Shown piece by piece: positions 16,684 through 32,594 of a stretch of 64,000 nucleotides of DNA. The notes below the pieces were generated by a model. The model was not told the DNA's origin and made no database searches. It saw only the letters and a program-made list of their open reading frames with translations. Source of the stretch: Candidatus Dojkabacteria bacterium (GTDB lineage Bacteria > Patescibacteriota > Dojkabacteria > B142 > OLB20); contig CP129475.1 in assembly GCA_030583785.1 (NCBI GenBank), positions 543,559 through 607,558 of the forward strand. Reading direction: 5' to 3'. The translations under genes and the position numbers were made by a program. Numbering within the stretch: the stretch's first letter is position 1; every line of letters starts with the position of its first letter.

Positions 16684-18671
16684 ATCAAAAATACACAGAT
16701 AACAATCTCCAGACAGATATTGATCGACTATTTGTAGCTCAAGATATCATTAAGGAGTTATCAGCAAAAAATTCATTTGAAGAAGTTGCGGTTAGTGCTC
16801 TAACTTTAATCGAGAAAAGAATGGGTTACTCTGCCGCATCGATATCTATGGTTAATAATGAAAAAGACACGATTCAATTAAAATATGTTTCAGATACATA
16901 TCTTTCGAAGATCCTTAAAAGCCTTGTATTAAACGAAAGGGTTATGGGTCAATATAGTATGAAAAAAGGGATAAAGACATTAACAATGCGAGCAGCACTT
17001 GAAGGTGAAGTAAAGATTGATAACGATATAACAAAATTCACAGTACCACCATTAACAAGAACAATTGCTCAAGCAATTCAGTTATTTACTAGGACAAAAT
17101 GTATGGTAGCTGTACCAATAAGATCGAAAGCTAGGGTAATTGCTGTACTAAACTTTACTGTTCCTAAAGACAAAACTGAAATTGGGGTAAACGAACAGAA
17201 GACATTAAAACTTTTTGTTGACCAGATAGGTCTAATTATAGATAACATTATCAACAACGAAGAGATAAAGAGCTTCAACAAACAACTTGAGGAAAAGGTC
17301 GCAATCGCAACAAAAGACCTCGAAAAAAGAAATACGAACCTTGAAACCTTATACAACTTGACTAGTAATATATCTCAAACACTCAATCCCGATCAAGTAC
17401 TGCAAACTTCTGTGAACACGATCCCCATCGATGAGGAACTTATAGGTGTTACCGTTTCAACATATGACCAAATCACAAAGAAGATCTCCATAAAAGCAAC
17501 AACCCAGAGTTTACTTGCAGAAAAGGCACTTGAAATAATCGGAAATTTCTCAAAGTATGAACTCAATTTATCGAACCCATTACATAGAAAGAATCTCCTA
17601 GTAAGAGCTTTGAAAGAAGGAACACCAAAGGAAACAAAGGATTTGTATGATTTTGTTAGACCAATCCTTAACAAATCAATGTCTGAAGGTTTAAACAGAT
17701 TATTAAAAATTGAGAACATACTTATTTACCCATTGTTAGCCCGTGGTGAACCTATTGGTGCAATCGTCTTCTATCTTAAAAAAGTCGGGGAGACAAGTAT
17801 TACAACCGAAAAACAACAGCTTTATTCTACTTATGCGTCACAGCTAAGTATCGCACTTGAGAACGCACTCCTATTTAGCAAATCACAAGAAATTACTACC
17901 AATTTGCAAGAAGCCAGGCAAAGAGAAAGGGATATGGTTGATGTCATGGGGCATGAACTAAGAACACCTATTTCTATTGTCAGAAATGCTCTATTAACAC
18001 TTGAGAAAGATTACAAAGCAGATAAGAAGATTGAAGATCAAGAAAAACTTGGTAGGTATTTAGACATGGCAATTGAATCAACAAAAAGAGAGATTCGTTT
18101 GATAGAAACCCTTCTCTCAGCTACGAAAGTTGAAGGAAACAAGGTTCAACTTGACCTAACGAAAGTTGATTTGACAGATGTGATCAACGACTCAATAGAA
18201 GCGATGAAAGGATACTTTGATGACAAGCCCAGAGTCAAACTTATCTACAATGCACCCAAAAGGCCAGTCTATATATATTCCGATCGAGTGAGGATACAAG
18301 AAATTACAGACAATTTATTAAGTAATGCTATTAAATATACTGCAGAAGGTTATGTAAAGATTGATTTACAAAAAAATAGCGATGAGGCTTGGATCACTAT
18401 TAAGGACACAGGCATCGGAATCGATGAACCTGACTTAAAAAACCTGGGCCATAAGTTCTTTAGAGCCAAAGGTATGCTAACTGAAGATCCAAATATTGTG
18501 CAGCCTAGTGGGACAGGACTTGGTCTTTTTGTATCGTTTAATCTACTGAAGCTTCTAAACGGCAGAAAACAAATTAAGAGTAATCGAGGAAAAGGATCAA
18601 CATTCAGCTTTTCGCAACCAATCTATAGAAATCAAAGGAATTCAAGAATTGAAGGGTCGATGGTAGGCTGA
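16680..18671 (+). CDS. soluble GAF-domain sensor histidine kinase, paralog of 11110..13431
   Basis: The HisKA/HATPase_c region is nearly collinear with HK1 (RERDMVDVMGHELRTPISIVRNAL ; LIETLLSATKVEGN ; NAIKYT ; GTGLGLFV ; GKGSTFSF). No TM segment. The N-terminus has GAF-like repeats. Confidence 0.75.
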   Translation: MNQKYTDNNLQTDIDRLFVAQDIIKELSAKNSFEEVAVSALTLIEKRMGYSAASISMVNNEKDTIQLKYVSDTYLSKILKSLVLNERVMGQYSMKKGIKTLTMRAALEGEVKIDNDITKFTVPPLTRTIAQAIQLFTRTKCMVAVPIRSKARVIAVLNFTVPKDKTEIGVNEQKTLKLFVDQIGLIIDNIINNEEIKSFNKQLEEKVAIATKDLEKRNTNLETLYNLTSNISQTLNPDQVLQTSVNTIPIDEELIGVTVSTYDQITKKISIKATTQSLLAEKALEIIGNFSKYELNLSNPLHRKNLLVRALKEGTPKETKDLYDFVRPILNKSMSEGLNRLLKIENILIYPLLARGEPIGAIVFYLKKVGETSITTEKQQLYSTYASQLSIALENALLFSKSQEITTNLQEARQRERDMVDVMGHELRTPISIVRNALLTLEKDYKADKKIEDQEKLGRYLDMAIESTKREIRLIETLLSATKVEGNKVQLDLTKVDLTDVINDSIEAMKGYFDDKPRVKLIYNAPKRPVYIYSDRVRIQEITDNLLSNAIKYTAEGYVKIDLQKNSDEAWITIKDTGIGIDEPDLKNLGHKFFRAKGMLTEDPNIVQPSGTGLGLFVSFNLLKLLNGRKQIKSNRGKGSTFSFSQPIYRNQRNSRIEGSMVG

Positions 18672-18792
18672 CTCAACCTTCTCTTTATTCTATATTCTCT
18701 TAGCTTTCTACCTAATCTGGACATTCGTAGATGATAACTGAGAAATCATAGCAATGTTGCACTTGCTGGCATTGTATTCTAATACAAACCGC

Positions 18793-19650
18793 TCAAATCA
18801 GTGTCCACCAGAAGTCCCCTGTATTAACAGGATGAGCAGTGCATTTATACCTTCTAGTTGTTCCGTTAGGTAGGTTGAACTTATATTCTCTTCCTTCCTC
18901 AACACATGGACTATTAGGGATTCCATAATCTTCGGGAAAACCATTTACTTCAGACGGTGCACAACTCAAGCCACTCTGACATGCTACATTACTGACAGTA
19001 CAAGTTTCCGGAGGCAGTCCACCATCGGTTCCATAACAACCGTTTGAAGAACCGGCCGCAGAACCTATATCACAACAACCGCCTACCCCATCACTTACAG
19101 ATGATATCAGTGAGGATGTTGGAGTTGCTGTTGCACCCGTAGGTGCTACTGAATCATCGCCCTGATTCTGTGATCCGGTTTCTGAACACACCGTACTGAA
19201 AAAAAATGTAAACCCAGGATCTCTGAGGTTGGCATAACATTCTGCCTCGTTGGATATGAGCCCTCGCATGATAGTTGCCACCACTGGCTGCGAAAGAAAA
19301 TACAAAAGCACACCTATCACCCATTGGCCTCCTCTTTTTTTTGCCTGCTCTGCTTTTTGTTCATCACCGGCACTTGTAAGGTAGATAAACCCGATAACAA
19401 CAAGCAGAAGCATAAAAACTATTCCTCCAAAAGCCCAGGCAGCATAAATAAACCTGATAACAACATATTGAAGCTCTCTGAGTTGAGGAGGTTCGCAATT
19501 TGGATCGTTAAGATCACATGGTGGTGTTAATCCTTGGGCATTGACTGAATCAAAAGAACCTACTAGCAAAGGTAACAAGAGCATAGTCAAAACGACCAGC
19601 AATACACCAAGTCTTTTTAATAACAAGATTAATGAATCGATTCTTTTCAT
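18793..19650 (-). CDS. VirB2/TrbC-like pilin-fold protein with C-terminal Cys/Gly/Ser-rich ectodomain (paralog 1)
   Basis: Signal peptide (MKRIDSLILLLKRLGVLLVVLTMLLLPLLVG). Two Cys in the short pre-core segment (PPCDLNDPNCEPP). Hydrophobic helix, charged loop (TSAGDEQKAEQAKKRG), second helix. A ~160-aa C-terminal domain with ~12 Cys follows. Start moved to the internal Met (19650); the ORF track gives 19722. Confidence 0.5.
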   Translation of the reverse strand: MKRIDSLILLLKRLGVLLVVLTMLLLPLLVGSFDSVNAQGLTPPCDLNDPNCEPPQLRELQYVVIRFIYAAWAFGGIVFMLLLVVIGFIYLTSAGDEQKAEQAKKRGGQWVIGVLLYFLSQPVVATIMRGLISNEAECYANLRDPGFTFFFSTVCSETGSQNQGDDSVAPTGATATPTSSLISSVSDGVGGCCDIGSAAGSSNGCYGTDGGLPPETCTVSNVACQSGLSCAPSEVNGFPEDYGIPNSPCVEEGREYKFNLPNGTTRRYKCTAHPVNTGDFWWTLI

Positions 19651-19735
19651 GTTTATAGTATAGGTCAGCTGTAAACAAAGTTCCAGAAAAAAAAGATCCG
19701 CACTAGGCGGATCTTTAAGCACATTTTAGTAATAA

Positions 19736-20278
19736 TTACTTACAATTCACACTAATTTGGCCTTGCCCTTTTGCAAATGCTTCGTACTCTGCCTCACAAC
19801 CAGTACAAACTGAATCAGCTGGATCTGCTAAACAAGCTTTACAGCCTACGCTGTTTGGTGCCGATAAACAGGTCTGGAATAAGTTTGGATCTGGTCTTGA
19901 AGCGCCAAAAAAGACAAAGACTAATACTATACCGACTATTGCCAAAAGCATTGCTGCAATACCCATGAAGATGGCAGTTATTGATTTTTGCGCTTCTTCG
20001 ATTTTACCGGAATCACCTTGAGACTGAATATACTTGATAGCTGCCATAATTGCATATACAACTGCAATTAGAACAACAATACCAAGAGCAATAACTAAAG
20101 CAAGTTGCACTCGACTGGTAACAAACTGTGCAGAACCGCTACCGTCTGGACCAGTAAGATTGAATATATCAGCTATTTGCGCAGGCAATAAACTTTGTGC
20201 AGCAACAACATTGACAAGACCTACTACAACAAAGAATGCCATTAATGCAAAAGCAACTGGAAAGAATCGTTTGGACAT
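19736..20278 (-). CDS. VirB2/TrbC-like pilin-fold protein with C-terminal Cys-rich tail (paralog 2)
   Basis: Signal peptide. Helix (LALVIALGIVVLIAVVYAIMAAI), loop (QSQGDSGKIEEAQKS), helix (AIFMGIAAMLLAIVGIVLVFVFF). Tail has 7 Cys (CLSAPNSVGCKACLADPADSVCTGCEAEY). Confidence 0.55.
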   Translation of the reverse strand: MSKRFFPVAFALMAFFVVVGLVNVVAAQSLLPAQIADIFNLTGPDGSGSAQFVTSRVQLALVIALGIVVLIAVVYAIMAAIKYIQSQGDSGKIEEAQKSITAIFMGIAAMLLAIVGIVLVFVFFGASRPDPNLFQTCLSAPNSVGCKACLADPADSVCTGCEAEYEAFAKGQGQISVNCK

Positions 20279-20362
20279 AAATATTAAATAATAATTAATG
20301 ACTAATACTCTCTATTTACAATTAGTTTAGCCTATCTGGTTATAAATGTTAAGTATTAACAA

Positions 20363-20914
20363 TTAAAACCAGCGCGAACTGATATTTTCACAAGATTGTT
20401 CCCATCTTCTGTACTCATTAAGAGTAATATCGTTGACTACAAGACTCTGCCATTCTTGACCATCGCGTACCTTGCAACAGCCTATGGCTACATTCTGTCT
20501 GAAATCATCTTCGCTATAGCCTTTTAATGTTTCGTCTGTTTCAAGATATTGAAACATGAATTGTCCGCTTGTTCCACCACACTGTGCAAGATTTGTATGC
20601 CAAGAATAAATATCCCCTATTCCTGTGAAAGCTCCAACCACAGATAAAACGACTAGAAAACCGAGGAACATAGCAATTCCAATCCAGATATTGGTAATTG
20701 TCTTTTTGCCTGCTTCGATCCCATCCGGTTCTGCCGCACTGGTAATAATTCGGATGCCTGCATAAATCGACAATGCAACCCAGACCACCACCATAACAGT
20801 GAAGACCATACTAATTCCAAAAGCGATTACCGATAGAACTCCTCCCGTAGCGATTCCTCCAACATTGGGAATTAGTAATTGAATGCCGCCGATTGTTGTT
20901 TGTAGATTGAACAT
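20363..20914 (-). CDS. VirB2/TrbC-like pilin-fold protein with C-terminal Cys-containing domain (paralog 3)
   Basis: Helix - SAAEPDGIEAGKKT loop - helix core. A ~80-aa C-terminal domain has 4 Cys, including a CC pair. Confidence 0.5.
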   Translation of the reverse strand: MFNLQTTIGGIQLLIPNVGGIATGGVLSVIAFGISMVFTVMVVVWVALSIYAGIRIITSAAEPDGIEAGKKTITNIWIGIAMFLGFLVVLSVVGAFTGIGDIYSWHTNLAQCGGTSGQFMFQYLETDETLKGYSEDDFRQNVAIGCCKVRDGQEWQSLVVNDITLNEYRRWEQSCENISSRWF

Positions 20915-20927
20915 GCTAATTATAATT

Positions 20928-21665
20928 TTACGGAATTAACTGCCATACTCCAGAAATGGAAGTTGGTGTCTCACGATTACAAATATAATTTTCAATTTCT
21001 CCATTAGTTAGAGCCCGATATGCTTTCTTCCCTATAGGTGAACATGCTTGGTTTGTTACCGTACCAATTAGCCTTTCTGGAGGGACCAAATCAAAATCAA
21101 AGAGGTTTTCGGCAAGACCAAGCAACATAGCCAACAACTGAATAATGATTATGCCAAATACAGATATAACTACTCCGATAAGAGCGTTCTTAAAAATTTT
21201 AACAGAGAGTTCGACTTTGTCTGCATTGTCTGCGGCCGTTGTTCGAACAATCATTCCGTACACTGCCATAAGTACAGTAACAACAGCAATAACACCCATT
21301 ACTGCAGAAAGTAATAACCGAGTTATTCGCGGGATAGCCATCTGAGGAGGACCGAAATCTATTCCAGAGAAATTGACACTGTTAACAACTTCGTCTGTGG
21401 CTTGATCCTCTCTTTCTTTCGGTTCTGAAGGATCTCCTTTTTTGCAGCTACGACCCTCTGCAATAATCCAATACTGACAAACATCATTGCAATCAGCTGC
21501 AGGATCGGTGAATTTAAGCACAGAACAAGCCGGATCAACAACTAGGTCAGTACGATTTGGTTCACTAACGGGCCCGGAATCCGGATCATCTTGGTCAATA
21601 ATGGCGCAACCAGAAAGTACAGTTAAAGCAACTGCAAATATAAATAGATTGAGTAATTTCTTCAT
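20928..21665 (-). CDS. lipoprotein with N-terminal Cys-rich domain, central VirB2/TrbC-like core and C-terminal Cys pair (paralog 4)
   Basis: Lipobox LTVLSGC. N-terminal domain with 5 Cys. Core IAVVTVLMAVYGMIV - RTTAADNADKVELSVK - ALIGVVISVFGIIIIQLLAMLLG. Confidence 0.5.
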   Translation of the reverse strand: MKKLLNLFIFAVALTVLSGCAIIDQDDPDSGPVSEPNRTDLVVDPACSVLKFTDPAADCNDVCQYWIIAEGRSCKKGDPSEPKEREDQATDEVVNSVNFSGIDFGPPQMAIPRITRLLLSAVMGVIAVVTVLMAVYGMIVRTTAADNADKVELSVKIFKNALIGVVISVFGIIIIQLLAMLLGLAENLFDFDLVPPERLIGTVTNQACSPIGKKAYRALTNGEIENYICNRETPTSISGVWQLIP

Positions 21666-21668
21666 TTG

Positions 21669-22022
21669 TTAATTACCAATTAACTGGATTCCGAAAATTG
21701 CCCCAATTAAACCAACTACTACAGGTGCAACAATGATAATAACAAAACCAATAACAGCATATGTCAATATTTTGTTTGCCTTTGCCTCTTGGTCTGCGTT
21801 ACCGGCAGCCGTGAGCTTGGTAAAACCCCCCAGAATGATCATAGCCAGCAAAGCCAAAGTTGCAGCAGGAAGGATAAACGCACTTAGCGAAGAAACAATG
21901 CTACTAATGTTTCCGAAAGCAGGATTGACAGGGTTTTGAATTGGATTCTGCGCTAAAACTTTTGTCGCTGCCACGAAAAAGATAACTATTGAAAGTACGA
22001 ATGTGCTTAATTGCTTTTTCAT
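21669..22022 (-). CDS. minimal VirB2/TrbC-like pilin (paralog 5, no Cys domain)
   Basis: Signal peptide MKKQLSTFVLSIVIFFVAATKVLA. Helix, AAGNADQEAKANK loop, helix (AVIGFVIIIVAPVVVGLIGAIFG). Size and topology are those of a canonical T-pilin/TrbC subunit. Start moved to the internal Met (22022); the ORF track gives 22043. Confidence 0.6.
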   Translation of the reverse strand: MKKQLSTFVLSIVIFFVAATKVLAQNPIQNPVNPAFGNISSIVSSLSAFILPAATLALLAMIILGGFTKLTAAGNADQEAKANKILTYAVIGFVIIIVAPVVVGLIGAIFGIQLIGN

Positions 22023-22064
22023 ATTCTTAGAATAGCAGAGCAAATAAATTGATTCAAATTACTC

Positions 22065-23207
22065 TTATCCTCCCAGGAAGTTTTCAGGAAGGATGCCAAG
22101 TACATTTATTCCCAAGAATCTTAGTATCACGACTGCGCCAACCAAAACCACCAAAGCAATTAGCGCAGAAGTAATCAGTTCCTTTGCCTCTCTTATTTGT
22201 TCGGGATTATCTGTCTGCATCATTATTGCAGCCTGCAGAAATCTGATTATCATGACACCACCGATTATTCCTATTCCTATTTGAAACAGCCTGGTAATGA
22301 TTCCATCTCTTGAATAATCAACGCAACCGATTGCAGTCCAAATTGTATTTGGACTGCTTGTGCATTCAATACAAAGGTTTTTTTCAGCATCGTTTCCTAC
22401 TATTGTTTCGCAACCGGTTGCTCCCGGAGCACCTTGTCGCCTTTCATACTCTTCTTCTGTAATCCAACTACCACTGTAACATCGTTTTTCTTTTAGTGTG
22501 TATCCTGGCGGATAGCAATTTTGTTCACAGCCAGACCTTGTTGTTGGAACTAGTGAGGACTTATCTGGATCTTCATCTACTGCCACACAGTTGTTGGGCT
22601 GGCATGAATAGCTTTGTTCAGGCGCCCGACCATGAGGATCTGTCAACAACAATAGATTATATAGACCTTCTCCGGGAGACCGTCCCTGGTCGTTAGCATT
22701 CTTGCAAGAGATCGGTCCTGGATTACCAGGTACTTGTGCCGGTGTGTATAGATTATTCACAACATTTACGACTCGATTATAGTTTCCTTCAAAGTCATTC
22801 TGATATCCCTGCGGGCAACAGACTATATACTTGGTAAAGCCCACCTGCTTCCAGATTGGATCCATATTTACGGGACAACAATAGAATTCGTTCCAATCAC
22901 CAAAATTTCCGTCGGTTCCTTTAACTCGTGCGATTCTCTCTTCGGCCAAACAAACCTCTACCCTATCGCCAGATCTTCTGCCTTGTACCGGATTTCCAAA
23001 AATACCTTCAGCAGGCTCTGTTAAACAAACTTTTTCTATTGTAGGTTGCTGCCTTCCATTGGTCATGTTCCTTTCGGTTAAACCATCTGGACAGACTGGT
23101 GTTGGAACACAGACGGCGCTTCCCACAGCAGAGACATTTTCGGATACTAAAGAAGCAAAGGTTACGAAAGAAGCAATGATTATGAATAAACGGACAATGT
23201 GAATCAC
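22065..23207 (-). CDS. secreted protein with large N-terminal Cys-rich ectodomain (~24 Cys) fused to C-terminal VirB2/TrbC-like core (paralog 6)
   Basis: Signal peptide. A ~280-aa domain dense in Cys/Pro/Gly. C-terminal core IGIGIIGGVMIIRFLQAAIMM - QTDNPEQIREAKE loop - LITSALIALVVLVGAVVILRFLG. Confidence 0.5.
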   Translation of the reverse strand: MIHIVRLFIIIASFVTFASLVSENVSAVGSAVCVPTPVCPDGLTERNMTNGRQQPTIEKVCLTEPAEGIFGNPVQGRRSGDRVEVCLAEERIARVKGTDGNFGDWNEFYCCPVNMDPIWKQVGFTKYIVCCPQGYQNDFEGNYNRVVNVVNNLYTPAQVPGNPGPISCKNANDQGRSPGEGLYNLLLLTDPHGRAPEQSYSCQPNNCVAVDEDPDKSSLVPTTRSGCEQNCYPPGYTLKEKRCYSGSWITEEEYERRQGAPGATGCETIVGNDAEKNLCIECTSSPNTIWTAIGCVDYSRDGIITRLFQIGIGIIGGVMIIRFLQAAIMMQTDNPEQIREAKELITSALIALVVLVGAVVILRFLGINVLGILPENFLGG

Positions 23208-25783
23208 TTTGGCACATTAGCTAAACTAGAAATATGAATCTCACCGCCTGCAGATAGTGTTCCGCCTACGATCTGCTTGGCAATATGGTTTTCTATATCA
23301 TCTTGAATAACTCTTCTTAATTCTCTGGCACCATATAAAGGATTGTAACCTTTTTTGGCAAGCTCGGCCAACAGGGTTGGAGCATAAGAAAAGGTGATAC
23401 CTTTTTCTTCCAGCTTCTCTTCAAGCTCTTTGAGCATGAGTGCTGCAATTTGTTGTACCTCGATGGGAACAAGTGGTTTGAACAGAACAACTTTATCGAA
23501 ACGATTAATAAATTCGATGCGTAGATAGTTTCTCAGCCTAGGCATTATTTCTGTTCGAAGCTTTTGGTAGTCGTAACCTTTTGCAGTGTAATCTGCAATC
23601 TCTTTTGATCCAAGATTTGATGTAGCAATAATAATTGTATTCGAAAAATCGACCTTTCTGCCCGCGCCATCTGTTAGTGATCCTTCGTCAAGAACCTGTA
23701 AGAACAGATCAAGAACTTTTGCATTAGCTTTCTCGATTTCATCAAGAAGAAGTAACGAATAAGGCTTTGTCCTAACGGCTTCTGTTAAATAGCCACCCTG
23801 AAATGTTCCTTTCACTTCTTTGCCAAGGAGTCTATCTAAATTTTCTGCCTCCTGATACTCAGACATGTCTAGCCTCAGCATTAGTTTTTCATCGCCGTAA
23901 TAGACTTTTGTTAATGCTTTAGCAAGTTCTGTTTTACCAACTCCAGTAGGCCCGAAGAACAGAAACGAGGCAATTGGCCTTTTGCCACTCATAAGCCCCG
24001 CTCTTGACCTGCGTAAAGCGTCTGCAACAGCAATAACAGCTTCTTCTTGTCCAACTATCCTTTTGTTGATTTCTTCTTCAAGGTTTACAAGTAACTTGGA
24101 CTCCTCTGTACTAATTGCACCAACTTTTACGCCTACTTTCGCCGACACGACTTCTTCGATCAACTGTTCATCTGCAAAATTAATACCTCGGTTTTGTGCT
24201 TCGACCATTACTTCTTCGAGCAAGTCTATTCCTTTGTCGGGCATGACTTTTTCAAAAGAGAACGAACCGGATAACTTGATAAGTCTTACAAGCGCATCAA
24301 AACTGACTTTAACCTTAAATTTATCTTCAAGCTTCGGCAGAACATCCATTAAGATTTGTTGACTAACAGATTCGGATGGGACTTTAAGCTCGACCTGTTT
24401 GAACTTTGCAGATAACGACCGTTCCGGCTTTATTCGGCGCTCGTATCCTGAAGTTGTTGCGACAGCAACTGTTCTTATTTTGTAACGATCAAGAGCATTT
24501 ATAATTAGGCCAACTATTTCTTCGGTAACATCTCTTCTACCGCTTAAAATTTGCTCAAAGTCATCTAACACTAAAATTATGTTCTTGGCTGCTGCTGATT
24601 CTTCAAAAACGCTTTGAACTCTTTCTTTGAACTTTTCAATATTCTGCGACAGAGCAAAGGCTCTACTAAAATCAAAACCGACAAGGCGCATATCTTTTAA
24701 AGATTTAGGGACATCTTCAACCACCATACGGACTGCGAGACTCTTGACTAGGGTCGTTCTTCCAACACCTGGGTTTCCGGTCAAAATTACTGCGCTATCT
24801 TCGCCTTCAACCAGATACGAAATCATTTGCTCCAGCTCTTCTTCTCGGGCAAGAGAATAACTAAAATCACCTTGTGCAACTTCGGCAGTATAGTCTCTTT
24901 GGAATTGAACAAGGATCGGTGAAAACCTTGAGGTAAAAGCTCTATTTACAGTAGAAACAGGTTTTAATGCTCTCTTTTGTTTAAACAATTTCTTGTAGCG
25001 AGCAATATCGCTTTTGTTCTGGATCCACAGACCTAAAGAAGCCACTTCTTCTGGAAGAACATTTACACTTTTCAATTTCTGCTTCAAAGGTTCTTTAAGT
25101 AAGAAGAGGAAAAAGGCGAGTTCATCGACACTATTTGTATGCAGTTCGTAAGCAAGTTCAAAAGACTCTTTTAGAACTTTCACCAACCATTCATCGACAT
25201 GGGTATTATTCATTCTGGAATGCGTGCTGCTAATTTTTTGTAACATTTCCTGATTCAAACCGAGCCTTTTTGCTGCGGCCATAACCTTTGGAAAAGAATA
25301 AAGCTCGTGCATTAATAGTGGTAAAAAGTTGTGGTCATCCATGCGCAACAAGTCATCTATAACATTGAGCAAATCATGATCAATAAATGAGCTCAATTCT
25401 ATCTGCTTGGGAAGGTCACCCTTGTTCAAAGATGCACGCAAATCGCTTAGCTGTTTGATACGCAACGAGTCGATAAATCTTGTCCTATTTCTGCGTAAAA
25501 ATAAAGCATATAAAAAAGGCAGAACAGAAAAGACTGCCAGTACATCTTTAATTCTGTCGGGATTAAGGATTTCAAATAGCAGAATCTTTCCTTCTTGCAA
25601 ATCTGTGAAGAAAAGAATAAATAAGGTGATCGCCGAAATGACAGTCAGAAAAAGTCCTAACGACCTATCAAATAATTCGAACTCTCTTCGTAGCCCATAT
25701 TCCTTTAATAAGTAGTCCCAATCAAGGAATAGAGGGATGCTTTTAAACAGTCCGATATTTTCTTTACCTTTACGCAACTGCAT
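23204..25783 (-). CDS. membrane-anchored Clp/Hsp100-family double AAA+ ATPase (ClpC/ClpA-like, no M-domain, no obvious ClpP-docking loop)
   Basis: Two N-terminal TM helices. Two Clp_N-like repeats (LPLLMHELYSFPKVMAAAKRLGLNQEML ; FFLFLLKEPLKQKLKSVNVL). D1 Walker A GNPGVGRTTL and Walker B ILVLDDFE. D2 Walker A GPTGVGKTELAK, Walker B LLLLDEIEKA, sensor IIIATSNLG. Its last 4 nt overlap the pilin-like paralog 6. Confidence 0.7.
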   Translation of the reverse strand: MQLRKGKENIGLFKSIPLFLDWDYLLKEYGLRREFELFDRSLGLFLTVISAITLFILFFTDLQEGKILLFEILNPDRIKDVLAVFSVLPFLYALFLRRNRTRFIDSLRIKQLSDLRASLNKGDLPKQIELSSFIDHDLLNVIDDLLRMDDHNFLPLLMHELYSFPKVMAAAKRLGLNQEMLQKISSTHSRMNNTHVDEWLVKVLKESFELAYELHTNSVDELAFFLFLLKEPLKQKLKSVNVLPEEVASLGLWIQNKSDIARYKKLFKQKRALKPVSTVNRAFTSRFSPILVQFQRDYTAEVAQGDFSYSLAREEELEQMISYLVEGEDSAVILTGNPGVGRTTLVKSLAVRMVVEDVPKSLKDMRLVGFDFSRAFALSQNIEKFKERVQSVFEESAAAKNIILVLDDFEQILSGRRDVTEEIVGLIINALDRYKIRTVAVATTSGYERRIKPERSLSAKFKQVELKVPSESVSQQILMDVLPKLEDKFKVKVSFDALVRLIKLSGSFSFEKVMPDKGIDLLEEVMVEAQNRGINFADEQLIEEVVSAKVGVKVGAISTEESKLLVNLEEEINKRIVGQEEAVIAVADALRRSRAGLMSGKRPIASFLFFGPTGVGKTELAKALTKVYYGDEKLMLRLDMSEYQEAENLDRLLGKEVKGTFQGGYLTEAVRTKPYSLLLLDEIEKANAKVLDLFLQVLDEGSLTDGAGRKVDFSNTIIIATSNLGSKEIADYTAKGYDYQKLRTEIMPRLRNYLRIEFINRFDKVVLFKPLVPIEVQQIAALMLKELEEKLEEKGITFSYAPTLLAELAKKGYNPLYGARELRRVIQDDIENHIAKQIVGGTLSAGGEIHISSLANVPK

Positions 25784-26108
25784 AGTTTAAATAGCGGATG
25801 AGCTGGATAAATGGCACTAAAGGTAAGACAAGATAAAATACAAAAATGGCCAACAACGGCAAAGTGAAGATAGTAAGAATAATGGAACCAGTTACAACCC
25901 AAACGAGTCGTATAGGAATGCTAATAAATACCCCGATCATTGAGTAGTCTTGATACAGGGGTACCAATATATTGGTTGCCATCGGTAAAATATTTAGGTA
26001 GCCAAGGGCAAAACTCCATATTGCAGATAGTTCCTGCAAGACTTGCCTAGACTGAACAAAATACCACCAGATCCAAAAATTAAGCAGATATTTTTTTATC
26101 AGCACCAC
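25770..26108 (-). CDS. small polytopic membrane protein (hypothetical)
   Basis: 112 aa with 3 hydrophobic helices. Overlaps the start of the Clp-like gene, so may lead the operon. Coding status is uncertain. Confidence 0.3.
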   Translation of the reverse strand: MVLIKKYLLNFWIWWYFVQSRQVLQELSAIWSFALGYLNILPMATNILVPLYQDYSMIGVFISIPIRLVWVVTGSIILTIFTLPLLAIFVFYLVLPLVPFIQLIRYLNYAVA

Positions 26109-26217
26109 AGAAGTGATAAATCTTAAAAAAGTTTAACACAGCGAAAGATTGCCGTCATGGGTTAACTGCTTTATAGATGATATAATTCGGCTGAAGTATT
26201 TTAGGCCATAACTTCGC

Positions 26218-27882
26218 ATGAAAAATGCGCTTAAAAGGTTATCAAGGTACGCCGCAGAGATCTATTTCTTGTTTGTGGCATTAGTCATTATGCTCCCCCT
26301 TTTAAGAGAGGGATACATATTGCTACTGGACATGACCTTTACCCCTAAAATGAACTACAGTTTTCAAAGTCCTTTCGGTTTATATAACGAGGCCGCTAGA
26401 GACGCAGTCCTTAACATTGCATCGCAAATAATAGGTTCGCAGTTACTCGAAAAGCTATTATTGCTCACCTTGTTATTCATGACCGGCTACTTCATGTTTC
26501 AACTTCTTAAACATTTAAAAGTGAATGCAGATGCAGCCCTTGTTGGCGCAACTCTATATTTATGGAATCCCTTTATTTATAGTCGATTACTTGCCGGTCA
26601 CTGGGCTTTTATATTTGGATATGCATTGCTACCAATCTTCCTGATTTTTTTTAACAAATACTTAAGTAGGAAAAGATTCTCGAATACTTATCTTATTTCT
26701 GCTGCGCTCCTTTGGTTTGCGGCCAGCCTAATAAGTATTCATCATCTATTCATATATTTTATTCCATCTGTTGCCATTACCTTTGCCCACATGCTGCAAA
26801 CCAAAAACTGGGAAGGTAAAATCGCAAGATTGGTTTCAATTTGTGCATTTGTGACTCTTTTCTCTTTTAGTTGGTTCTTACCCACAATCCTTTCTGGAGA
26901 AGTTTCTAGAATCGATAATAATAATCTGCAATTCTTTGCCTCCACTCCTGACCTAAAATATGGACTCTCTACAAACTTACTTGGAATGTATGGGTTTTGG
27001 GCAGAGAATACAATTGGCGAAACAATAAAACCCTATCTGTCGATCTGGCCAGTTATTTCCATATCTTTAGTGATTATCTCGGCTGCTTCTTTACTGCTGG
27101 CAAAACAATGCTGTAAAAAAAATCAGTATTTATTCATCGTTGCTCTGGCAGGAACTGGTTTTATTGGATTTGTTCTTGCTCACGGATCATATGGAATAAT
27201 GCAACCTTTTTGGGACTTCTTCTTTGTAAAGATTCCCTTGTTGCAAATGTTTAGAGACTCACAAAAGTTTCTTAGTTTATATGTCTTAGCATTGAGTATT
27301 CTTCTTCCTTTCAGTATAGGCGCCATCGCTGATTCAGTTAAGATATATAAATTGAGTAAAGAGTCGAAGATAAGAGGATTGAGCATTTTATTGGTTTTGT
27401 TAATAATTCTGGTCAATCCTTTTATGGGATTTGCGGCTGCTGGTCAGATGAAAATATCTGATTATCCAGACAGTTGGTATCAACTTGAGGATAAAGTTAT
27501 TAGTGAACAGAGACCCTCTAAGATTCTGATGCTTCCATGGTTAGCCTATGCCAAGTTCGGGTTCAGTGATAAACAAATTGCCAACCCTGGATCAAAATTC
27601 TTTAGTGCCTATGTTATCGCAGAAAGGATTCCTGCCCTTCTAAAGCAACCTACAAACTGCGAGATCGAATTTAAAGAATATTATAGAGGCGAGATTATTA
27701 GTCTCTGCTTAAACAGCAATAGTGCAAACGCTGACTGGATTAACCAGATTAAAAGCAATGGAATTGACTATGTTGTCATCAATAAAATAAAAGGCTTTGA
27801 AGTAAATGATTTTTACAACGACAAAGAACACTTTCAGAAATTATTTACAGACGACTATACAGAAATATACGAGGTGCTTTAG
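26218..27882 (+). CDS. polytopic membrane protein, GT-C-like glycosyltransferase candidate (paralog of N-domain of 32595..36314)
   Basis: About 10+ TM helices. Pattern shared with the larger neighbour: AALVGATLYLWNPFIYSRLLAGHWAFIFGYALLPIF versus AALIAGFVYTLNTYSIVLFAEAGHINILVAYGFVPLAI. The architecture resembles YfhO/arabinosyltransferase-type GT-C enzymes. Confidence 0.4.
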   Translation: MKNALKRLSRYAAEIYFLFVALVIMLPLLREGYILLLDMTFTPKMNYSFQSPFGLYNEAARDAVLNIASQIIGSQLLEKLLLLTLLFMTGYFMFQLLKHLKVNADAALVGATLYLWNPFIYSRLLAGHWAFIFGYALLPIFLIFFNKYLSRKRFSNTYLISAALLWFAASLISIHHLFIYFIPSVAITFAHMLQTKNWEGKIARLVSICAFVTLFSFSWFLPTILSGEVSRIDNNNLQFFASTPDLKYGLSTNLLGMYGFWAENTIGETIKPYLSIWPVISISLVIISAASLLLAKQCCKKNQYLFIVALAGTGFIGFVLAHGSYGIMQPFWDFFFVKIPLLQMFRDSQKFLSLYVLALSILLPFSIGAIADSVKIYKLSKESKIRGLSILLVLLIILVNPFMGFAAAGQMKISDYPDSWYQLEDKVISEQRPSKILMLPWLAYAKFGFSDKQIANPGSKFFSAYVIAERIPALLKQPTNCEIEFKEYYRGEIISLCLNSNSANADWINQIKSNGIDYVVINKIKGFEVNDFYNDKEHFQKLFTDDYTEIYEVL

Positions 27883-28247
27883 AATAGAATAGTATTATTG
27901 CGAAAATTTACTGGAATCACTAGCCACATATTATATAGGTCAGTTACTTGCAGCAGAGATAATCGCTGAAGATGAATCAGCAGACCGACTTAACGGCGAG
28001 ATCCATAGAATAAATCCCCTACACTATGACGCAGCCGCAATTCTTGTGGGTTCCAAAGAAAGAAATCTACCTCTAGAAAAATATTCTATAAGTATCGAAG
28101 GCATAGACTGCAACTTTCGAATAGCGGCTGCGTATTATTTGGCAAAGCATATGCGTGATAAGCGCTGATATTTGTTGTTTAGTGCTGCAATAAGTTATAA
28201 TCAAGCACCTCTGCCCAGGTAGCAATAACACCAAAATTATAATAACC

Positions 28248-29729
28248 ATGATATATGAACCTAGACTAGATACTGCTCATAGGCAGGAGCTGAAAGGAAC
28301 AGGTAACAGGAAATTAGTATTATTGTTACTGGCTGGCACTTTGGTTGTGTCTGCAAGCGGATGCTTTCAAAACGCGGGTCAACCACTCGAGATAACACCT
28401 AGTAACCCAGTTGTTAGAACTTTTACACCTACCCCCACTCCAACAATGGAGGTATTAGCGACTGCAACTCTGCCGCCAACCGCAACTTTACCACCAACTG
28501 AAACAGTGGGAGCAGGTGACCCACCAGAAGACGACCCAGAAGATGACAATAATGACCCTCTACCAACAGCAGGCCCCGATGGAGTAATTCGTATCACAGC
28601 AACACCAAATCCAACAGAGGCTCAGACATTAACTCCAACAACAAGGCCTACTGAAACCGAAACTGCAACAGCACAACCTACTTTGGATAGCGATGCAGTT
28701 CTGTTTGATGCAGATGGAAAAACACTAAATTGGCAGCCGGCTGGATTTATACCAGCATTATCAAACCTTGAAGGTAACCAATATGGATTTCTTAACCCTG
28801 ATGGTACAACTACTATCAGAGAAGATGGGGCAATAATCCTCGAATATTTCTCTAGACTCTTTGCAGGAGAGAATATAAGCCAAAGTGCGATAGACATCTG
28901 GTCTCTGGCAGAGACAGATATTAGTAATATCCCAGCGGATTTCTTGGCAGATCAGCATAACAAGATTCGCGAATTAGTAGCTGAGCAGGTTGGATATTCT
29001 TCCAGAGTGGGAGAAAGCAGAATCGACGAAGATCAATTAGCTGCAACTATGAACTACCTGCACGAAGTTTTTGCCGCAATGGCTTCAACTGGATCGCTTC
29101 CCCAATCCGGAAACAATGCAACAGTCTTTTATGTGCCTGTTCAAGAACTTGTGACTTCATATAACGGCGACATGCTTGATTTATCTGAATATCAAATATT
29201 TCAGACAGGTAGGCAAGAACCACAGAATCCGGCAGAAGCGATGTCGGCTATTAACCAAATTGCAAGAAACCAAAACAGTCGCCAAATGCAAATTGGAGGA
29301 GCTGACGGGATAATAAGACGACTCTCGGCACCCTTCAGAAGATTCTTTACTAACAGTAACAGACCTACGAGTCTTTCTGCAGAAAACTACAACGGTCATG
29401 TATTTGTTGTTAGAATGACTGTTGGTGGAAATTCTTACCGCATTAGCCTTGGTGCAGACTCCATTGTGAATTTGTACACATCCAGCGAAGCAACCAGTAC
29501 ACCTTTTATGCTGGCGACGGGAACAGCAACAATGCCAGCGCCGACATCTACAGATAGCTGGAACGAAACAAGACCAACCGAAACACAACCAACAAGAGAG
29601 GCTACAGCAATTGTGCCACCAACTGACGAACCTCCACCACCAACTGATCTGCCTATTCCACCAACGGATGTTGTGCCACCGACTGACATGCCACCTCAGC
29701 CGACTTTAACAAGTGTACCGAATAATTAA
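28248..29729 (+). CDS. lipoprotein with Pro/Thr-rich repeat linkers (putative glycosylated surface protein)
   Basis: Signal plus lipobox-like SASGC. N-terminal TPTPTPT and TATLPPTATLPPTET repeats. C-terminal PPTDEPPPPTDLPIPPTDVVPPTDMPPQPT repeats. The globular middle part is of unknown function. Confidence 0.5.
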   Translation: MIYEPRLDTAHRQELKGTGNRKLVLLLLAGTLVVSASGCFQNAGQPLEITPSNPVVRTFTPTPTPTMEVLATATLPPTATLPPTETVGAGDPPEDDPEDDNNDPLPTAGPDGVIRITATPNPTEAQTLTPTTRPTETETATAQPTLDSDAVLFDADGKTLNWQPAGFIPALSNLEGNQYGFLNPDGTTTIREDGAIILEYFSRLFAGENISQSAIDIWSLAETDISNIPADFLADQHNKIRELVAEQVGYSSRVGESRIDEDQLAATMNYLHEVFAAMASTGSLPQSGNNATVFYVPVQELVTSYNGDMLDLSEYQIFQTGRQEPQNPAEAMSAINQIARNQNSRQMQIGGADGIIRRLSAPFRRFFTNSNRPTSLSAENYNGHVFVVRMTVGGNSYRISLGADSIVNLYTSSEATSTPFMLATGTATMPAPTSTDSWNETRPTETQPTREATAIVPPTDEPPPPTDLPIPPTDVVPPTDMPPQPTLTSVPNN

Positions 29730-29747
29730 TTTTTTATTTAAATTCGT

Positions 29748-32546
29748 ATGAAAATAAAAAAGACAGTAACAGCAATAGTTATAAGCTGTTTGCTTCTCTC
29801 TTTGTTTCCGATTCAAAAAACAGAAGCCACAGTCGGAGAATGCGTAATTGGGACTGTATGCGCATACAAAGATGTATATGATTTCCAAACCTCTACTTAT
29901 CACCCCGAAATTGCAAACGGCGTTGAACTAGAACAAAACATCTTCAGAATTGGAATCTGGAATACATCAGGAAGTCCAATCCACAATGTCAGGGTTCATG
30001 ATGTTCTTCCTTCTGGTCTAACTTATATACCCACAACCGTTGTCGTTGCTGGTTATACAGGGACATATAATGATCAGGATCTTTTTAACGGAACTGGAAT
30101 AAATTTTGGAACAGTTGCCAATTCCGGATCAATACAACTTAATTTTCTGGTAAGAGTCGACGACTTGCCTGAAGGCAATTACACTTTAACTAACAACGCA
30201 ACAATAACCTGGGACGGAGGATCAATTTCAGATACAGCTTCTGTGTATGTCGAAGCACAAGATCCACCTGTAAACGAAGGAATATTATTGGTGAACGAAA
30301 TTAACCATGCACCAAGAGCCGATTACAGTGCAGGATCTTCATATGCTTTAAAGAATCGAACTGCAGTAAACGCTGATGATCAATGGATTGAAGTCTTTAT
30401 ACGACAGAACGGTCTTGACCTTAGCGATTCACGCTGGGAAATGACAATTACCAACAACGGAGGCAGTACTGACACAAGAAACCTATTAACCATTGGATCA
30501 AGCTATGAATATTTCGGATCAGGATCTGTAACAAATACAGTTAATGGTGCCTATCTTCTTCTTGCTAATCCTTATCTAGAAATCTCAAACGATGCAATAA
30601 TCAGCATTAAATACAACGGAATCACAGTCGATGATATGACCGTTAGTGGTTCAAACACAGGTCTTTTAGATGAAACCATAGGAAGGAACGAAAGCAGCAC
30701 AGACACAAACAGTAACTCAGATTTCAGTAGGAATCACGGAACTCCAGGTAGAGCTAATGAACAAAGAAGCCAAGCACGCTATGAGGCAGAAATCTATATT
30801 GACTCCCAAGCTGGCAACGAAAGAGGTATCGATGTCATTGATGCTGGCGCCAGTAGAGGCATAGCCAAAAAGCTTGAACCGGCATTTGATCTAGCTGGAA
30901 ATATAATGAATGTATCTTCATCTGCCCAGAATGCAGCAGGATACTACAAAGCAATACTTAGACTGAAAGCAGAAAATGCCGATCTTAATAGTTCTGATCA
31001 TTTTGCAGAGTTTAACATCAACTACGATAACGGCACAGGTGGATACCATACAATTGGCTATGCTATCCGCGGTAGAGATATCGTATCTAATGGCGTATAC
31101 CAAAACTTTGAGATCGAATTCCGAAAAGGCCCGTCAACAACAAATTCAGTCTTTGAGCTTAGCTTTATACCATCAGCAGGTACAACAGTAATTGTCGACT
31201 ATATCGAAGTTGCTCCATTTTCTCCCAACAATTCTCTACCCCGAGTATACGAGGCCGAAAATATGCACTTCAAAACAGGCTATAGAGCCGACGATGCTGG
31301 TACAGCAGTTGCTTTTGGACCTAAATCTGAAGCTAATGCAGACTCCTTCATGAGCTTCGGTCCATTTACCGCAAGTCACATTACAGGAATCGGTTCAGGA
31401 CAATTCCTAGCAACATATAGAATGCGCTTTGCCAATATTACAGGATCAGCATCCGATTTGGCAGTCCGCATTGATGTTCATAACAAAGCAACAGGAATCT
31501 ATCGAGAGAGATTCTTAAGAGTGGCAGACTTATCTGGAAGTTATAAAGACTTCGAGATTTCATTCCCGGCAACCGGTCAAGGTTCAATCGAATTTCGAGT
31601 TATTAACCTTGGGGCAGCTGACATCTACTTTGACAAAGTAACAGTAACCTCAACAAGTTCTGCCAGCATCAGTTATGAGGCAGAGAGTGATTTCGAGTAT
31701 CCAATAGCTCCTGTTGCAACACTAATCAATGCAGGGGCTTCTGGAACACAGGAGGTAAAGGCAGATACAGCAATCAACGCTGAAGGATTCTTAATCAGAG
31801 GTCCTCATGCTTTTGACCAAACAGAAACCAGCAAATACTATGAAGCAAGTTTCAGATTAAGAACAGACTCACCTGCAAGTGGAAACAGCCTACCCGCCGC
31901 ATTACTGTTTATCAGAAACATTGATACAGGACAAATTCTTACAAGTCAGATAGTACATGCCAACACGCTGGTTGAAGATTACAGATCATTCAAGCTGGTC
32001 TTCAACTCTCCAATCGAGGGCAGACTATCTTATGAGGTCTACTTTTTGAGGACAACAAATGTGATTGCCGATAATGTGGTCGTAACAGAACTGCCAGGCA
32101 ATCCAAATCCAAGAGTAAGTCAGGCTGAACAGCTTAGAAGATGGAATAATAACGGCTCAATCGTTGAAGACAGCAAGGCTTCAAACAGCATCGGTCACAC
32201 AAGTGGCTATGCGGTGCAAGCTCTAAGCGGAATTAATAACAATCAAGTTGTCTTGTTTAGTGATTCCCAAGAAGTATTCCCTTCGGGAAACTATGAAGCC
32301 AAATTCCATGTTCGCGGAACTCTCTCCGGAGGATCATCACAAGATATTGCCTATCTTGAGGTATGGAACGAGTTCGGACACCTTAACTATTACCCTCTAA
32401 AGGAATCAGAATTAGACACCGAATATGGTGTATTCACAGTTCCTTTCACAAAAGTCTCTAACGGAAGAATCTACTTTAAAGTGTTCTACCGCGGAGGTCT
32501 TTCTAACAGCATGTTAATCGATAAAATCGAAGTGAACATGTTATAA
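29748..32546 (+). CDS. large secreted surface protein: signal peptide, DUF11-type conserved repeat domain, lamin-tail (LTD)-like domain, four ~140-aa internal repeats
   Basis: Signal MKIKKTVTAIVISCLLLSLFPIQKTEA. DUF11-like segment (NVRVHDVLPSGLTYIP...YTLTNNATITWDGG). LTD-like segment (ILLVNEINHAPRAD...DQWIEVF). Repeat units open with RYEAEIYID / VYEAENMHF / SYEAESDFE / SQAEQLRRW. Confidence 0.55.
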   Translation: MKIKKTVTAIVISCLLLSLFPIQKTEATVGECVIGTVCAYKDVYDFQTSTYHPEIANGVELEQNIFRIGIWNTSGSPIHNVRVHDVLPSGLTYIPTTVVVAGYTGTYNDQDLFNGTGINFGTVANSGSIQLNFLVRVDDLPEGNYTLTNNATITWDGGSISDTASVYVEAQDPPVNEGILLVNEINHAPRADYSAGSSYALKNRTAVNADDQWIEVFIRQNGLDLSDSRWEMTITNNGGSTDTRNLLTIGSSYEYFGSGSVTNTVNGAYLLLANPYLEISNDAIISIKYNGITVDDMTVSGSNTGLLDETIGRNESSTDTNSNSDFSRNHGTPGRANEQRSQARYEAEIYIDSQAGNERGIDVIDAGASRGIAKKLEPAFDLAGNIMNVSSSAQNAAGYYKAILRLKAENADLNSSDHFAEFNINYDNGTGGYHTIGYAIRGRDIVSNGVYQNFEIEFRKGPSTTNSVFELSFIPSAGTTVIVDYIEVAPFSPNNSLPRVYEAENMHFKTGYRADDAGTAVAFGPKSEANADSFMSFGPFTASHITGIGSGQFLATYRMRFANITGSASDLAVRIDVHNKATGIYRERFLRVADLSGSYKDFEISFPATGQGSIEFRVINLGAADIYFDKVTVTSTSSASISYEAESDFEYPIAPVATLINAGASGTQEVKADTAINAEGFLIRGPHAFDQTETSKYYEASFRLRTDSPASGNSLPAALLFIRNIDTGQILTSQIVHANTLVEDYRSFKLVFNSPIEGRLSYEVYFLRTTNVIADNVVVTELPGNPNPRVSQAEQLRRWNNNGSIVEDSKASNSIGHTSGYAVQALSGINNNQVVLFSDSQEVFPSGNYEAKFHVRGTLSGGSSQDIAYLEVWNEFGHLNYYPLKESELDTEYGVFTVPFTKVSNGRIYFKVFYRGGLSNSMLIDKIEVNML

Positions 32547-32594
32547 TTATAGGATATTATCCCCTCTATCGCTCTGCGGTAGAGGGGTCCTATA

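Follow-up and report, generated by a model that had tools for sequence, protein, structure and literature searches.

We analysed a 64,000-nt stretch of a Candidatus Dojkabacteria genome (GenBank assembly GCA_030583785.1, contig CP129475.1, positions 543,559 to 607,558; hereafter the window) and within it a block of minus-strand genes that encode a small membrane protein, a membrane-anchored Hsp100/Clp-like AAA+ ATPase and a tandem array of six pilin-like proteins (Table 1). All six pilin-like proteins contain two strong hydrophobic segments joined by a short charged or polar loop, as judged by hydropathy, and five of them carry additional cysteine-rich domains. An initial annotation, made from the sequence alone, had described six consecutive genes with a common helix-loop-helix core. 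We recovered all six open reading frames (ORFs) and every one of the six loop sequences it quoted, and profile searches bear out the shared core.

Table 1. Genes and features of the pilin-like block, in order of window position.
Feature	Coordinates	Strand	Cys	Remark
Pilin-like gene, 285 aa	18793..19650	-	12 (285-aa form)	ATG at 19650; 309 aa (18793-19722) if GTG at 19722 is used
Intrinsic-terminator-like hairpin	19692..19716	-		10-bp stem, 5-nt loop, then U-run
Pilin-like gene, 180 aa	19736..20278	-	6	
Pilin-like gene, 183 aa	20363..20914	-	4	
Pilin-like lipoprotein gene, 245 aa	20928..21665	-	7 (including lipobox Cys)	
Minimal pilin gene, 117 aa	21669..22022	-	0	117 aa counted from MKKQL; ORF reaches 22043 via TTG start (124 aa)
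Pilin-like gene, 380 aa	22065..23207	-	18	
Membrane-anchored class-I Hsp100/Clp-like AAA+ ATPase gene, 859 aa	23204..25783	-		
Small polytopic membrane protein gene, 112 aa	25770..26108	-	0	First gene of the block

The array genes are tightly packed. Going upstream from the last gene, they are separated by 13, 84, 13, 3 and 21 nt. The initial annotation had given gaps of -4 to 84 nt; the upper value lies within the array, but the -4 corresponds to the 4-nt overlap between the 380-aa gene and the ATPase gene, which is outside the six. The ATPase gene in turn overlaps the 112-aa gene by 14 nt. The minimal pilin gene is called as 117 aa in both NCBI and Logan contigs. The last array gene most likely starts at ATG 19650 rather than at the upstream GTG, since this start matches the gene call in a near-identical NCBI contig. 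The terminator-like hairpin falls within the GTG extension, between the stop codon of the 180-aa gene and ATG 19650. Its position and U-run suggest that the last gene, which has a variable tail, may be attenuated or separately transcribed. The hairpin is not conserved in the related locus L007, where the two genes abut at this point, or in candidate division WS6 OLB20. A TATACT/TATAAA stretch precedes the ATG at 19650.

Homology among the six cores is supported by leave-one-out searches. A profile built from any five cores retrieved the sixth with E-values from 1.2e-11 (for the 183-aa core) to 3.5e-4, and the match outranked every other window ORF of 60 aa or more (137 in total), many of which encode membrane proteins. 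This ranking indicates that the six cores are homologous and not just alike in composition. The conserved loop motif is not low-complexity. The paralog cores are only ~20-26% identical to each other (19-26% in comparisons with the minimal pilin).

The minimal pilin matches the T4SS_pilin family (Pfam accession PF18895) across the full profile at 38.6 bits, above the cut-off of 26.6; the initial annotation had likewise taken this paralog for a minimal pilin. Scores below the cut-off were obtained for the 309-aa form of the last gene product (25.3 bits), the 380-aa protein (25.0 bits, residues 303-365), the 245-aa protein (20.6 bits) and the 180-aa protein (14.5 bits), and the 183-aa protein has no Pfam match. 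Because the leave-one-out profiles tie the cores together, we accept all six as members of PF18895 by transitivity. All six also match NCBIfam NF045849 (‘pilin-like conjugal transfer protein’) weakly, with 29.1 bits for the minimal pilin, 25.3 bits for the 245-aa protein and 16.7 bits for the 183-aa protein. On profile evidence, the six cores belong to PF18895, a family treated as VirB2-like by its curators and in research on type IV secretion systems (T4SSs).

The topology of the cores had been called the hallmark of VirB2/TrbC conjugative pilins. Membership of PF18895 upholds this assignment in part, but direct comparisons with classical VirB2 do not. The best match to TrbC/VirB2 (Pfam accession PF04956) is 15.6 bits (E = 0.02, minimal pilin only) and falls short of the cut-off of 27.9. 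An hhalign comparison of 66 Dojkabacteria cores with eight VirB2/TrbC proteins from conjugative MPF_T plasmids gave a probability of 1.1%; an Agrobacterium tumefaciens VirB2 sequence matched this reference set at 100%, which indicates that the set is sound, though shallow. The six-core profile run against all Protein Data Bank (PDB) sequences retrieved designed helical proteins and no pilin, and fold searches were non-specific, with generic helical hairpins as their only matches. The AlphaFold2 (AF2) model of the 180-aa protein (mean predicted local distance difference test score, pLDDT, of 81) contains the expected long hairpin (H49-88/H90-126) and a small helical 6-Cys domain that is modelled with confidence (pLDDT 84-96). 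The link to classical VirB2 is thus indirect: two PF18895 pilins of Southlakia epibionticum, encoded within a T4SS locus, also match PF04956 (Wang et al., 2023; PMC10633639 Tables S1/S2). A class III signal with a prepilin-peptidase site (G/(F,M)xxxE) followed by a single N-terminal helix was found in none of the six proteins or their orthologs; their signals are of the signal peptidase I (SPase I) or lipobox type, and they have two helices.

The six-core profile matched 49,062 cluster representatives at E <=1e-3. Its top matches are proteins in which one chain holds 3-8 cores in tandem, in some cases along with 40-65 cysteines. These fused forms (P0013, P0014, P0017, P0023, P0027, P0034 and P0046; P0014 includes PIT98131.1 from Candidatus Andersenbacteria) include proteins of 606 aa with seven cores, 501 aa with six cores, and 933 aa with six cores and 65 cysteines. 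They may be single-chain versions of the pilin array, or they may be gene-calling artefacts.

The five headed paralogs differ in the size and arrangement of their cysteine-rich parts. The 380-aa protein has a signal peptide, a ~270-aa beta-rich ectodomain that holds its 18 cysteines, and a C-terminal core. We identified 11 homologs of this protein, and a 12-sequence alignment contains eight invariant and six nearly invariant cysteines and a highly conserved core. In a seven-locus set, ten cysteines are present in 7/7 sequences. Identity within this family is 60% in the core versus 16-22% in the ectodomain. The AF2 model from the 12-sequence alignment (pLDDT 53.6) has a beta-rich head and a hairpin (H303-330/H335-364) and is too poor for a fold search. 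The initial annotation had proposed to look for disulfide-bonded beta-rich folds in the cysteine-rich domains; the 380-aa head is beta-rich in its low-confidence model, and the C-terminal domain of the 180-aa protein is helical.

The minimal pilin consists of a signal peptide and the hairpin. Cys-free orthologs of 117-130 aa occupy the matching position in related loci, and this protein is a candidate major subunit, probably the bulk one. The 245-aa protein has a lipobox (LSGC), a 4-Cys domain before the core and a 2-Cys tail after it. The lipobox is kept in its two closest orthologs, and the other orthologs have SPase I-type signals; the cysteine columns of the family are conserved in 5-6/7 sequences. 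The 183-aa protein has a short N-terminus with no obvious cleavable signal peptide, followed by the core and a ~80-aa C-terminal domain whose four cysteines are conserved in 5-7/7 orthologs.

The 180-aa protein has a signal peptide, a conserved mature N-terminus (QSLLP...), the core and a ~50-aa helical 6-Cys C-terminal domain. An alignment of 83 sequences shows no variation at three cysteines of this domain (C137, C146 and C161) and very little at the other three (C149, C158 and C179). We identified 117 homologs of this protein, none of which (0/117) has a precomputed Pfam domain. The stretch immediately after the signal peptide is strikingly conserved across the family (QSLLPxQIxDIFNLLGxxGSG). 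Its members go by inconsistent names in different sources, such as ‘DUF4190’, ‘fumarate reductase subunit D’ or ‘heme/copper oxidase subunit 2’. The 285-aa protein has a long signal peptide, a conserved cysteine pair before helix 1, the core, a conserved proximal tail (CY.NLRDPGFTFFF..VC), and then a Thr/Ser linker that leads to a hypervariable Cys-rich domain. Its orthologs range from 170 to 393 aa; their first four cysteines are conserved and their distal parts are not alignable.

The ectodomains of different paralogs are unrelated to each other (hhalign probability <=10%). A C...W module that a first alignment had hinted was shared by the C-terminal tails was dropped on the same comparison (probability <=10%). 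These results support the view that five paralogs carry cysteine-rich additions of unrelated sequence, as the initial annotation held, but the number of cysteines ranges from 4 to 18 rather than from 4 to ~24. The additions had been placed N-terminally in the lipoprotein and the 380-aa protein and C-terminally in the other three. This arrangement holds broadly, except that the 245-aa protein has cysteines on both sides of the core and the 285-aa protein has its cysteine pair before helix 1. Signal peptides and charged loops together imply outward-facing termini, and therefore all Cys-rich parts would be extracellular. The predicted topology thus agrees with the earlier proposal that the extra domains are surface-exposed.

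We identified related loci through the ATPase (L007-L011), through the 380-aa protein (L013-L015) and, in metagenomes, through the N-terminal domain of the ATPase (L025, L030-L032). These loci share one gene order: small transmembrane protein, ATPase, 380-type protein (16-20 Cys), Cys-free minimal pilin, 245-type, 183-type, 180-type (1-3 copies) and 309-type protein. A further locus reached via a 180-aa homolog (L016/L028) encodes the same families in a permuted order that starts with four 180-type copies, and it carries a UvrD helicase insertion. Copy number thus varies for the 180-type gene (1-4 tandem copies), and there are also duplications of the 380-type gene in L010 and two minimal pilin copies each in L014 and L025.

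The array follows the ATPase in 13 loci. These comprise all loci that were fetched via the Clp or 380-aa protein query and had enough flanking sequence, except the distant L012, plus L016 from the 180-aa homolog. The co-occurrence of the array with a Clp-like ATPase in related genomes, which the initial annotation had proposed to survey, is therefore seen in 13 loci and lacking in L012. Apart from the locus with the UvrD helicase, one locus has an insertion of 1,078 aa. The flanks of the block vary from locus to locus, with GroEL upstream in L010 and L011, for example. L012 is a two-gene locus (a 413-aa headed pilin and a 143-aa pilin) with no ATPase nearby. L012 and L016/L028 come from the same assembly (GCA_015657875.1) on separate contigs (NPID01000413.1 and NPID01000369.1), and the contig sizes of 1.08 Mb and 0.6 Mb suggest that this record may hold more than one genome.

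Sequence identity of the Clp protein across the compared loci is only 40-66%. Within the ortholog families of the pilin-like proteins, cores are 60-75% identical versus 16-45% for ectodomains. As judged by these alignments and by gene position in L007-L011, L013-L016, L025, L030 and L032, each paralog is a separately conserved ortholog in a fixed gene order throughout the class, and only the tail of the last gene and some copy numbers vary. Positional orthologs with conserved cores and cysteine skeletons argue for distinct, non-interchangeable subunits rather than a freely diversifying repertoire. The paralogs would thus be a fixed, ancient set of distinct subunits, comparable to major and minor pilins, and not antigenic variants. 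The earlier description of the array as a diversifying family is not supported by these comparisons, given positional orthologs in all related loci.

The ATPase gene that precedes the array encodes a protein with matches to AAA_2 (178 bits), ClpB_D2-small (78 bits) and AAA (72 bits) and no match to Clp_N. It has an N-terminal two-helix anchor (transmembrane segments at 37-63 and 78-96) and a ~290-aa lineage-specific domain. The initial annotation had described it as a membrane-anchored Clp/Hsp100 protein, and it is a two-ring Hsp100. All NCBIfam equivalog scores are far under their cut-offs (ClpB, 466 versus 1232; ClpA, 409 versus 993; ClpV, 397 versus 885). The protein matches residues 183-733 of ClpA as one colinear stretch, while its ClpB match is split in two, and the colinear match leaves no room for a ClpB-type M domain. 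The D2 module is canonical (GPTGVGKT/LLLLDE) and the D1 ring looks degenerate from its motifs. The D1 Walker A motif reads GVGRT (Lys to Arg) in the window and in OLB20, but not in other orthologs; the D1 Walker B motif is DD in the window and DD or ED in all orthologs, and the D1 pore loop lacks Tyr. With two AAA modules and a D2-small domain, the protein can be placed no more narrowly than in the class-I Hsp100 superfamily.

Orthologs of the ATPase are encoded in OLB20 and in other Dojkabacteria metagenome-assembled genomes (MAGs). A homolog search with its N-terminal 300 aa in a word-indexed database returned one match only. Used as an alignment query on metagenome contigs, the N-terminal domain worked once distant rows had been dropped. 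The 112-aa membrane protein matches no Pfam or NCBIfam family. In L007-L011 and L013 an ortholog lies directly ahead of Clp, and in L014 this place is taken by a gene of 111 aa that is a putative ortholog.

The block is chromosomal. The window contains genes for GroEL, YidC, L25, SmpB, phosphoketolase, acetate kinase, glycosyltransferases and histidine kinases. A mobile-element origin was rejected because there are no tRNA genes, no integrase family appears among the Pfam matches and the neighbours are housekeeping genes. A GC content that is even across the window and like the surroundings, together with class-wide synteny, also rules it out. VirB4, VirB6, VirB11 and VirD4 were found nowhere in the 64-kb window by Pfam scans of the large ORFs (~10 ORFs have no Pfam match). 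The statement to this effect in the initial annotation is therefore correct, yet it is not telling, as Dojkabacteria are listed as VirB4-positive. T4SS core genes (VirB4, VirB6 and PrgI/VirB3) are likewise absent from the precomputed Pfam lists of L001 and L012-L016. This check covered the window, L001 and L012-L016; the flanks of L007-L011 and L025-L033 lie outside it.

The near-identical NCBI contig mentioned above, JACFOF010000006.1 (L001), encodes an identical 380-aa protein and is 99.26% identical to window positions 18667-33207. QY330_02650, encoded on a 1.17-Mb contig of a Candidatus Dojkabacteria MAG, has the same sequence as the 180-aa protein. Similarity between L001 and the window ends exactly downstream of the last pilin gene (window ~18667; L001 position 14541). 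At this point the NCBI strain has a gene for a 261-aa HTH_3/GAF regulator that is missing from the window, and a helix-turn-helix (HTH) gene also follows the array in the relatives L007, L013 and L014. On the other side of the block, and opposite to it in orientation, lies a divergent run of large and mostly unannotated envelope protein genes (26218-36314, plus strand). Their products are a polytopic membrane protein (554 aa), a protein rich in Pro and Thr (493 aa), one with a DUF11/CLIPPER domain (932 aa) and one that resembles DUF6541 (1,239 aa). Synteny of this run is seen in L007, L014 and L015 and not in L010 or L011.

Tandem arrays of divergent pilin genes are already known for Patescibacteria and are not new. 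A search of 3,035 Patescibacteria genomes with PF04956 and PF18895 identified 441 ‘VirB2 arrays’ with 2-11 members each, spread over 383 assemblies and with a mean identity of 25% (Quinonero-Coronel et al., 2025; PMC12102498). Six tandem PF18895-family genes of low identity in a Patescibacteria genome (Candidatus Dojkabacteria) correspond to what that survey defines as an array, for which at least two PF18895/PF04956 genes must be adjacent or have one gene between them. Pilin genes lay near virB4 in 1,135/1,948 VirB4-positive assemblies and not near it in 813/1,948, and the authors suggested that the arrays reflect adaptation to different host strains. Dojkabacteria genomes are flagged as VirB4-positive in the survey, and a preprint lists Dojkabacteria among the phyla with a T4SS. 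In S. epibionticum, a series of six divergent pilin genes (SEML1_0014-0019) lies inside the T4SS locus (PMC10633639; PMC12857230), and all of them are essential (Wang et al., 2023). The same organism encodes a 127-aa small transmembrane protein (SEML1_0701) and an 860-aa AAA protein without Clp_N (SEML1_0700) far from the pilins; both are non-essential, and they are possible counterparts of the Dojkabacteria pair.

These precedents bear on two proposals of the initial annotation. The suggestion of an unrecognised secretion or fibre system is not supported in view of the 441 published arrays and the essential six-pilin array of S. epibionticum. An array inside a T4SS locus has moreover been found for another class of the phylum, which makes the array as such ordinary rather than new. 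Three features were not found in the papers searched and give this locus its value, namely the conserved ortholog structure, the disulfide-rich heads and the linkage to Clp. The fusion of 3-8 cores in one chain in other members of the phylum was not found in those papers either. To our knowledge, no Clp protein has been reported to be associated with VirB2-like pilins, and our literature searches brought up no such case.

On balance we favour, as probable rather than firm, the interpretation that the VirB2-like pilin array known from Patescibacteria is represented in Dojkabacteria by this locus, with one minimal pilin and five headed pilin-like subunits. The proteins would enter the membrane via Sec, using SPase I or lipoprotein signals, and come to rest with both ends facing outward and the short charged loop facing the cytoplasm. 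The ectodomains would be oxidised outside the cell, where an MdbA-like oxidoreductase and VKOR, both enriched in the candidate phyla radiation (CPR; PMC6744442), could form the disulfides. The minimal 117-aa protein would serve as the bulk subunit and the five headed paralogs as accessory subunits, such that six non-interchangeable subunits may build one heteromeric envelope structure, a T4SS-associated pilus or stalk. Accessory heads would be displayed for contact with the host cell, as has been proposed for the six-pilin array of S. epibionticum. The rings of the co-transcribed ATPase would lie in the cytoplasm, and its most likely role is a dedicated one in extracting, assembling or quality-controlling the hairpin proteins. 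This role, for which conserved adjacency and gene overlap speak, is the weakest step of the proposal.

Several observations count against this interpretation. First, there is no VirB4, VirB6 or PrgI gene within the 64 kb. Second, the tight packing of a helical filament makes it difficult to accommodate a 270-aa head, and the fused chains of 3-8 cores in other CPR bacteria speak against a classical homopolymeric pilus. Third, S. epibionticum needs its pilins but not the comparable pair of small transmembrane protein and ATPase, which is encoded away from them; this suggests that the ATPase may be dispensable for pilin function. Finally, the cytoplasmic loops, at ~12-15 residues, would be poor handles for an Hsp100 protein.

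Some of these points would fit a membrane-embedded hetero-oligomer, in which the six hairpins, side by side and in fixed stoichiometry, form a ring, channel or platform in the cytoplasmic membrane under a Cys-rich extracellular cap. Polypeptides with 3-8 cores, some with six cores and 42-65 cysteines, hint at side-by-side packing. The bulky heads also speak for it, as does the strong conservation of cores within families at only ~20-26% identity between paralogs. We nevertheless regard this arrangement as unlikely. The family is annotated and discussed as pilins, and its members co-occur with T4SS genes; the fused proteins may be artefacts, as noted above; and the Cys-free paralog, present in two copies in L014 and L025, resembles a polymerising bulk subunit.

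The linkage to the ATPase could instead point to an autonomous, VirB4-independent apparatus made up of the small transmembrane protein, the Hsp100 protein and the six pilin-like proteins, in which Clp replaces VirB4/VirB11 as the energy source that extracts hairpin subunits. The block stays together in 13 loci while its flanks change, the Clp gene and the first pilin gene overlap, no T4SS gene lies in the window, and the ATPase, a paralog specific to the lineage, brings its own membrane anchor and scores far under all NCBIfam Clp cut-offs. Such an apparatus seems quite unlikely to us, given that Dojkabacteria genomes are listed as VirB4-positive and that separation of pilin genes from virB4 is common in VirB4-positive assemblies (813/1,948). 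In S. epibionticum, moreover, the T4SS locus includes the array but not the comparable ATPase pair, which is encoded elsewhere and dispensable. The linkage has been seen only in one class-level lineage and one Saccharibacteria-labelled bin, and shared ancestry may explain part of it. We give equally little credence to the extended form of this idea, in which a Clp unfoldase and not VirB4 drives assembly or retraction of a host-recognising headed structure, with the fused six-core polyproteins as its single-chain versions.

Free diversification, with the paralogs as interchangeable adhesins or antigenic variants on a pilin-like scaffold, can draw on ectodomains that evolve far faster than cores, on the unalignable distal tail of the last gene (in orthologs of 170-393 aa), on the variable copy number of the 180-type gene (1-4) and the 380-type duplication in L010, and on the host-strain adaptation suggested by the published survey. 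It is decidedly improbable, since gene order is fixed and positional orthologs keep their cysteine skeletons even though the Clp proteins of the same loci are only 40-66% identical. The six S. epibionticum pilins are also individually essential, all six of them, and are thus not redundant. That the cores are an unrelated two-helix membrane family whose pilin resemblance is an artefact of hydrophobic-hairpin composition is highly improbable: five of the six fall under the PF18895 cut-off or have no Pfam match at all (one), no relation to genuine VirB2/TrbC is detectable, fold searches are non-specific and the 180-aa family carries names such as ‘DUF4190’ and ‘fumarate reductase subunit D’, but the minimal paralog matches the whole profile with a score above the curated cut-off, leave-one-out profiles link all six above other membrane proteins of the window, the loop motif is not low-complexity, and PF18895 members of S. 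epibionticum match PF04956 and lie in a T4SS locus.

Few functions have been demonstrated to be indispensable to a cultivated Patescibacterium in its epibiotic life, and the T4SS with its pilin array is among them. Fast-evolving, disulfide-scaffolded outer domains that were acquired in one class are obvious candidates for host recognition. The coupling to an unusual membrane-bound Hsp100 protein suggests a chaperone or extraction step that is not known for any T4SS. Because several of the families described here escape the Pfam model, surveys of CPR pilins that rely on hidden Markov models would under-count them.

Among known systems, the locus most resembles the S. epibionticum array, the TM7x ‘Sec secreted array’ and the arrays of the Patescibacteria survey (PMC12102498). 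It shares with them tandem PF18895-family genes of ~20-26% identity, a signal peptide and two-helix hairpin, a chromosomal location in a CPR genome and a context without relaxase, and its six members match the number in S. epibionticum. In contrast to the S. epibionticum pilins, which are 104-186 aa long and mostly minimal, five of the six proteins here have conserved disulfide-rich ectodomains of 50-270 aa. The array also lies outside a T4SS locus and after a membrane-anchored Hsp100 ATPase. Several of its members, including the whole 180-aa family, differ from those of the surveyed arrays in being unrecognised as pilins by Pfam.

Like VirB2, TrbC and TraA of the MPF_T and MPF_F systems of diderm bacteria, the proteins are small, start with a long signal peptide and have two hydrophobic helices with a short loop of polar, basic character between them and termini predicted to face outward. 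They show no significant sequence or profile similarity to these pilins, however, and are not adjacent to VirB3, VirB4 or VirB1 as in the plasmid loci that we fetched. Classical conjugative pilins are not known to carry large ectodomains, and adhesion is mediated by a separate protein of the VirB5 or TraN type. The ATPase resembles ClpV of the type VI secretion system and EccA of the type VII secretion system in being an AAA+ protein encoded in the operon of an envelope machine, and it gives a partial match to ClpV (TIGR03345). It differs from ClpV in its two-helix membrane anchor, the missing Clp_N domain, a D1 module that looks degenerate and a score of 397 versus the cut-off of 885. Finally, type IV pili and type II secretion systems have minor pilins and pseudopilins that differ from the proteins described here in fold and biogenesis; the latter have two helices instead of one and no PilB- or PilC-type neighbours. 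The two groups are nonetheless organised alike: in each, a conserved operon encodes a major subunit and several distinct minor ones, which have a hydrophobic assembly module in common and differ in their exposed heads, often with disulfides.

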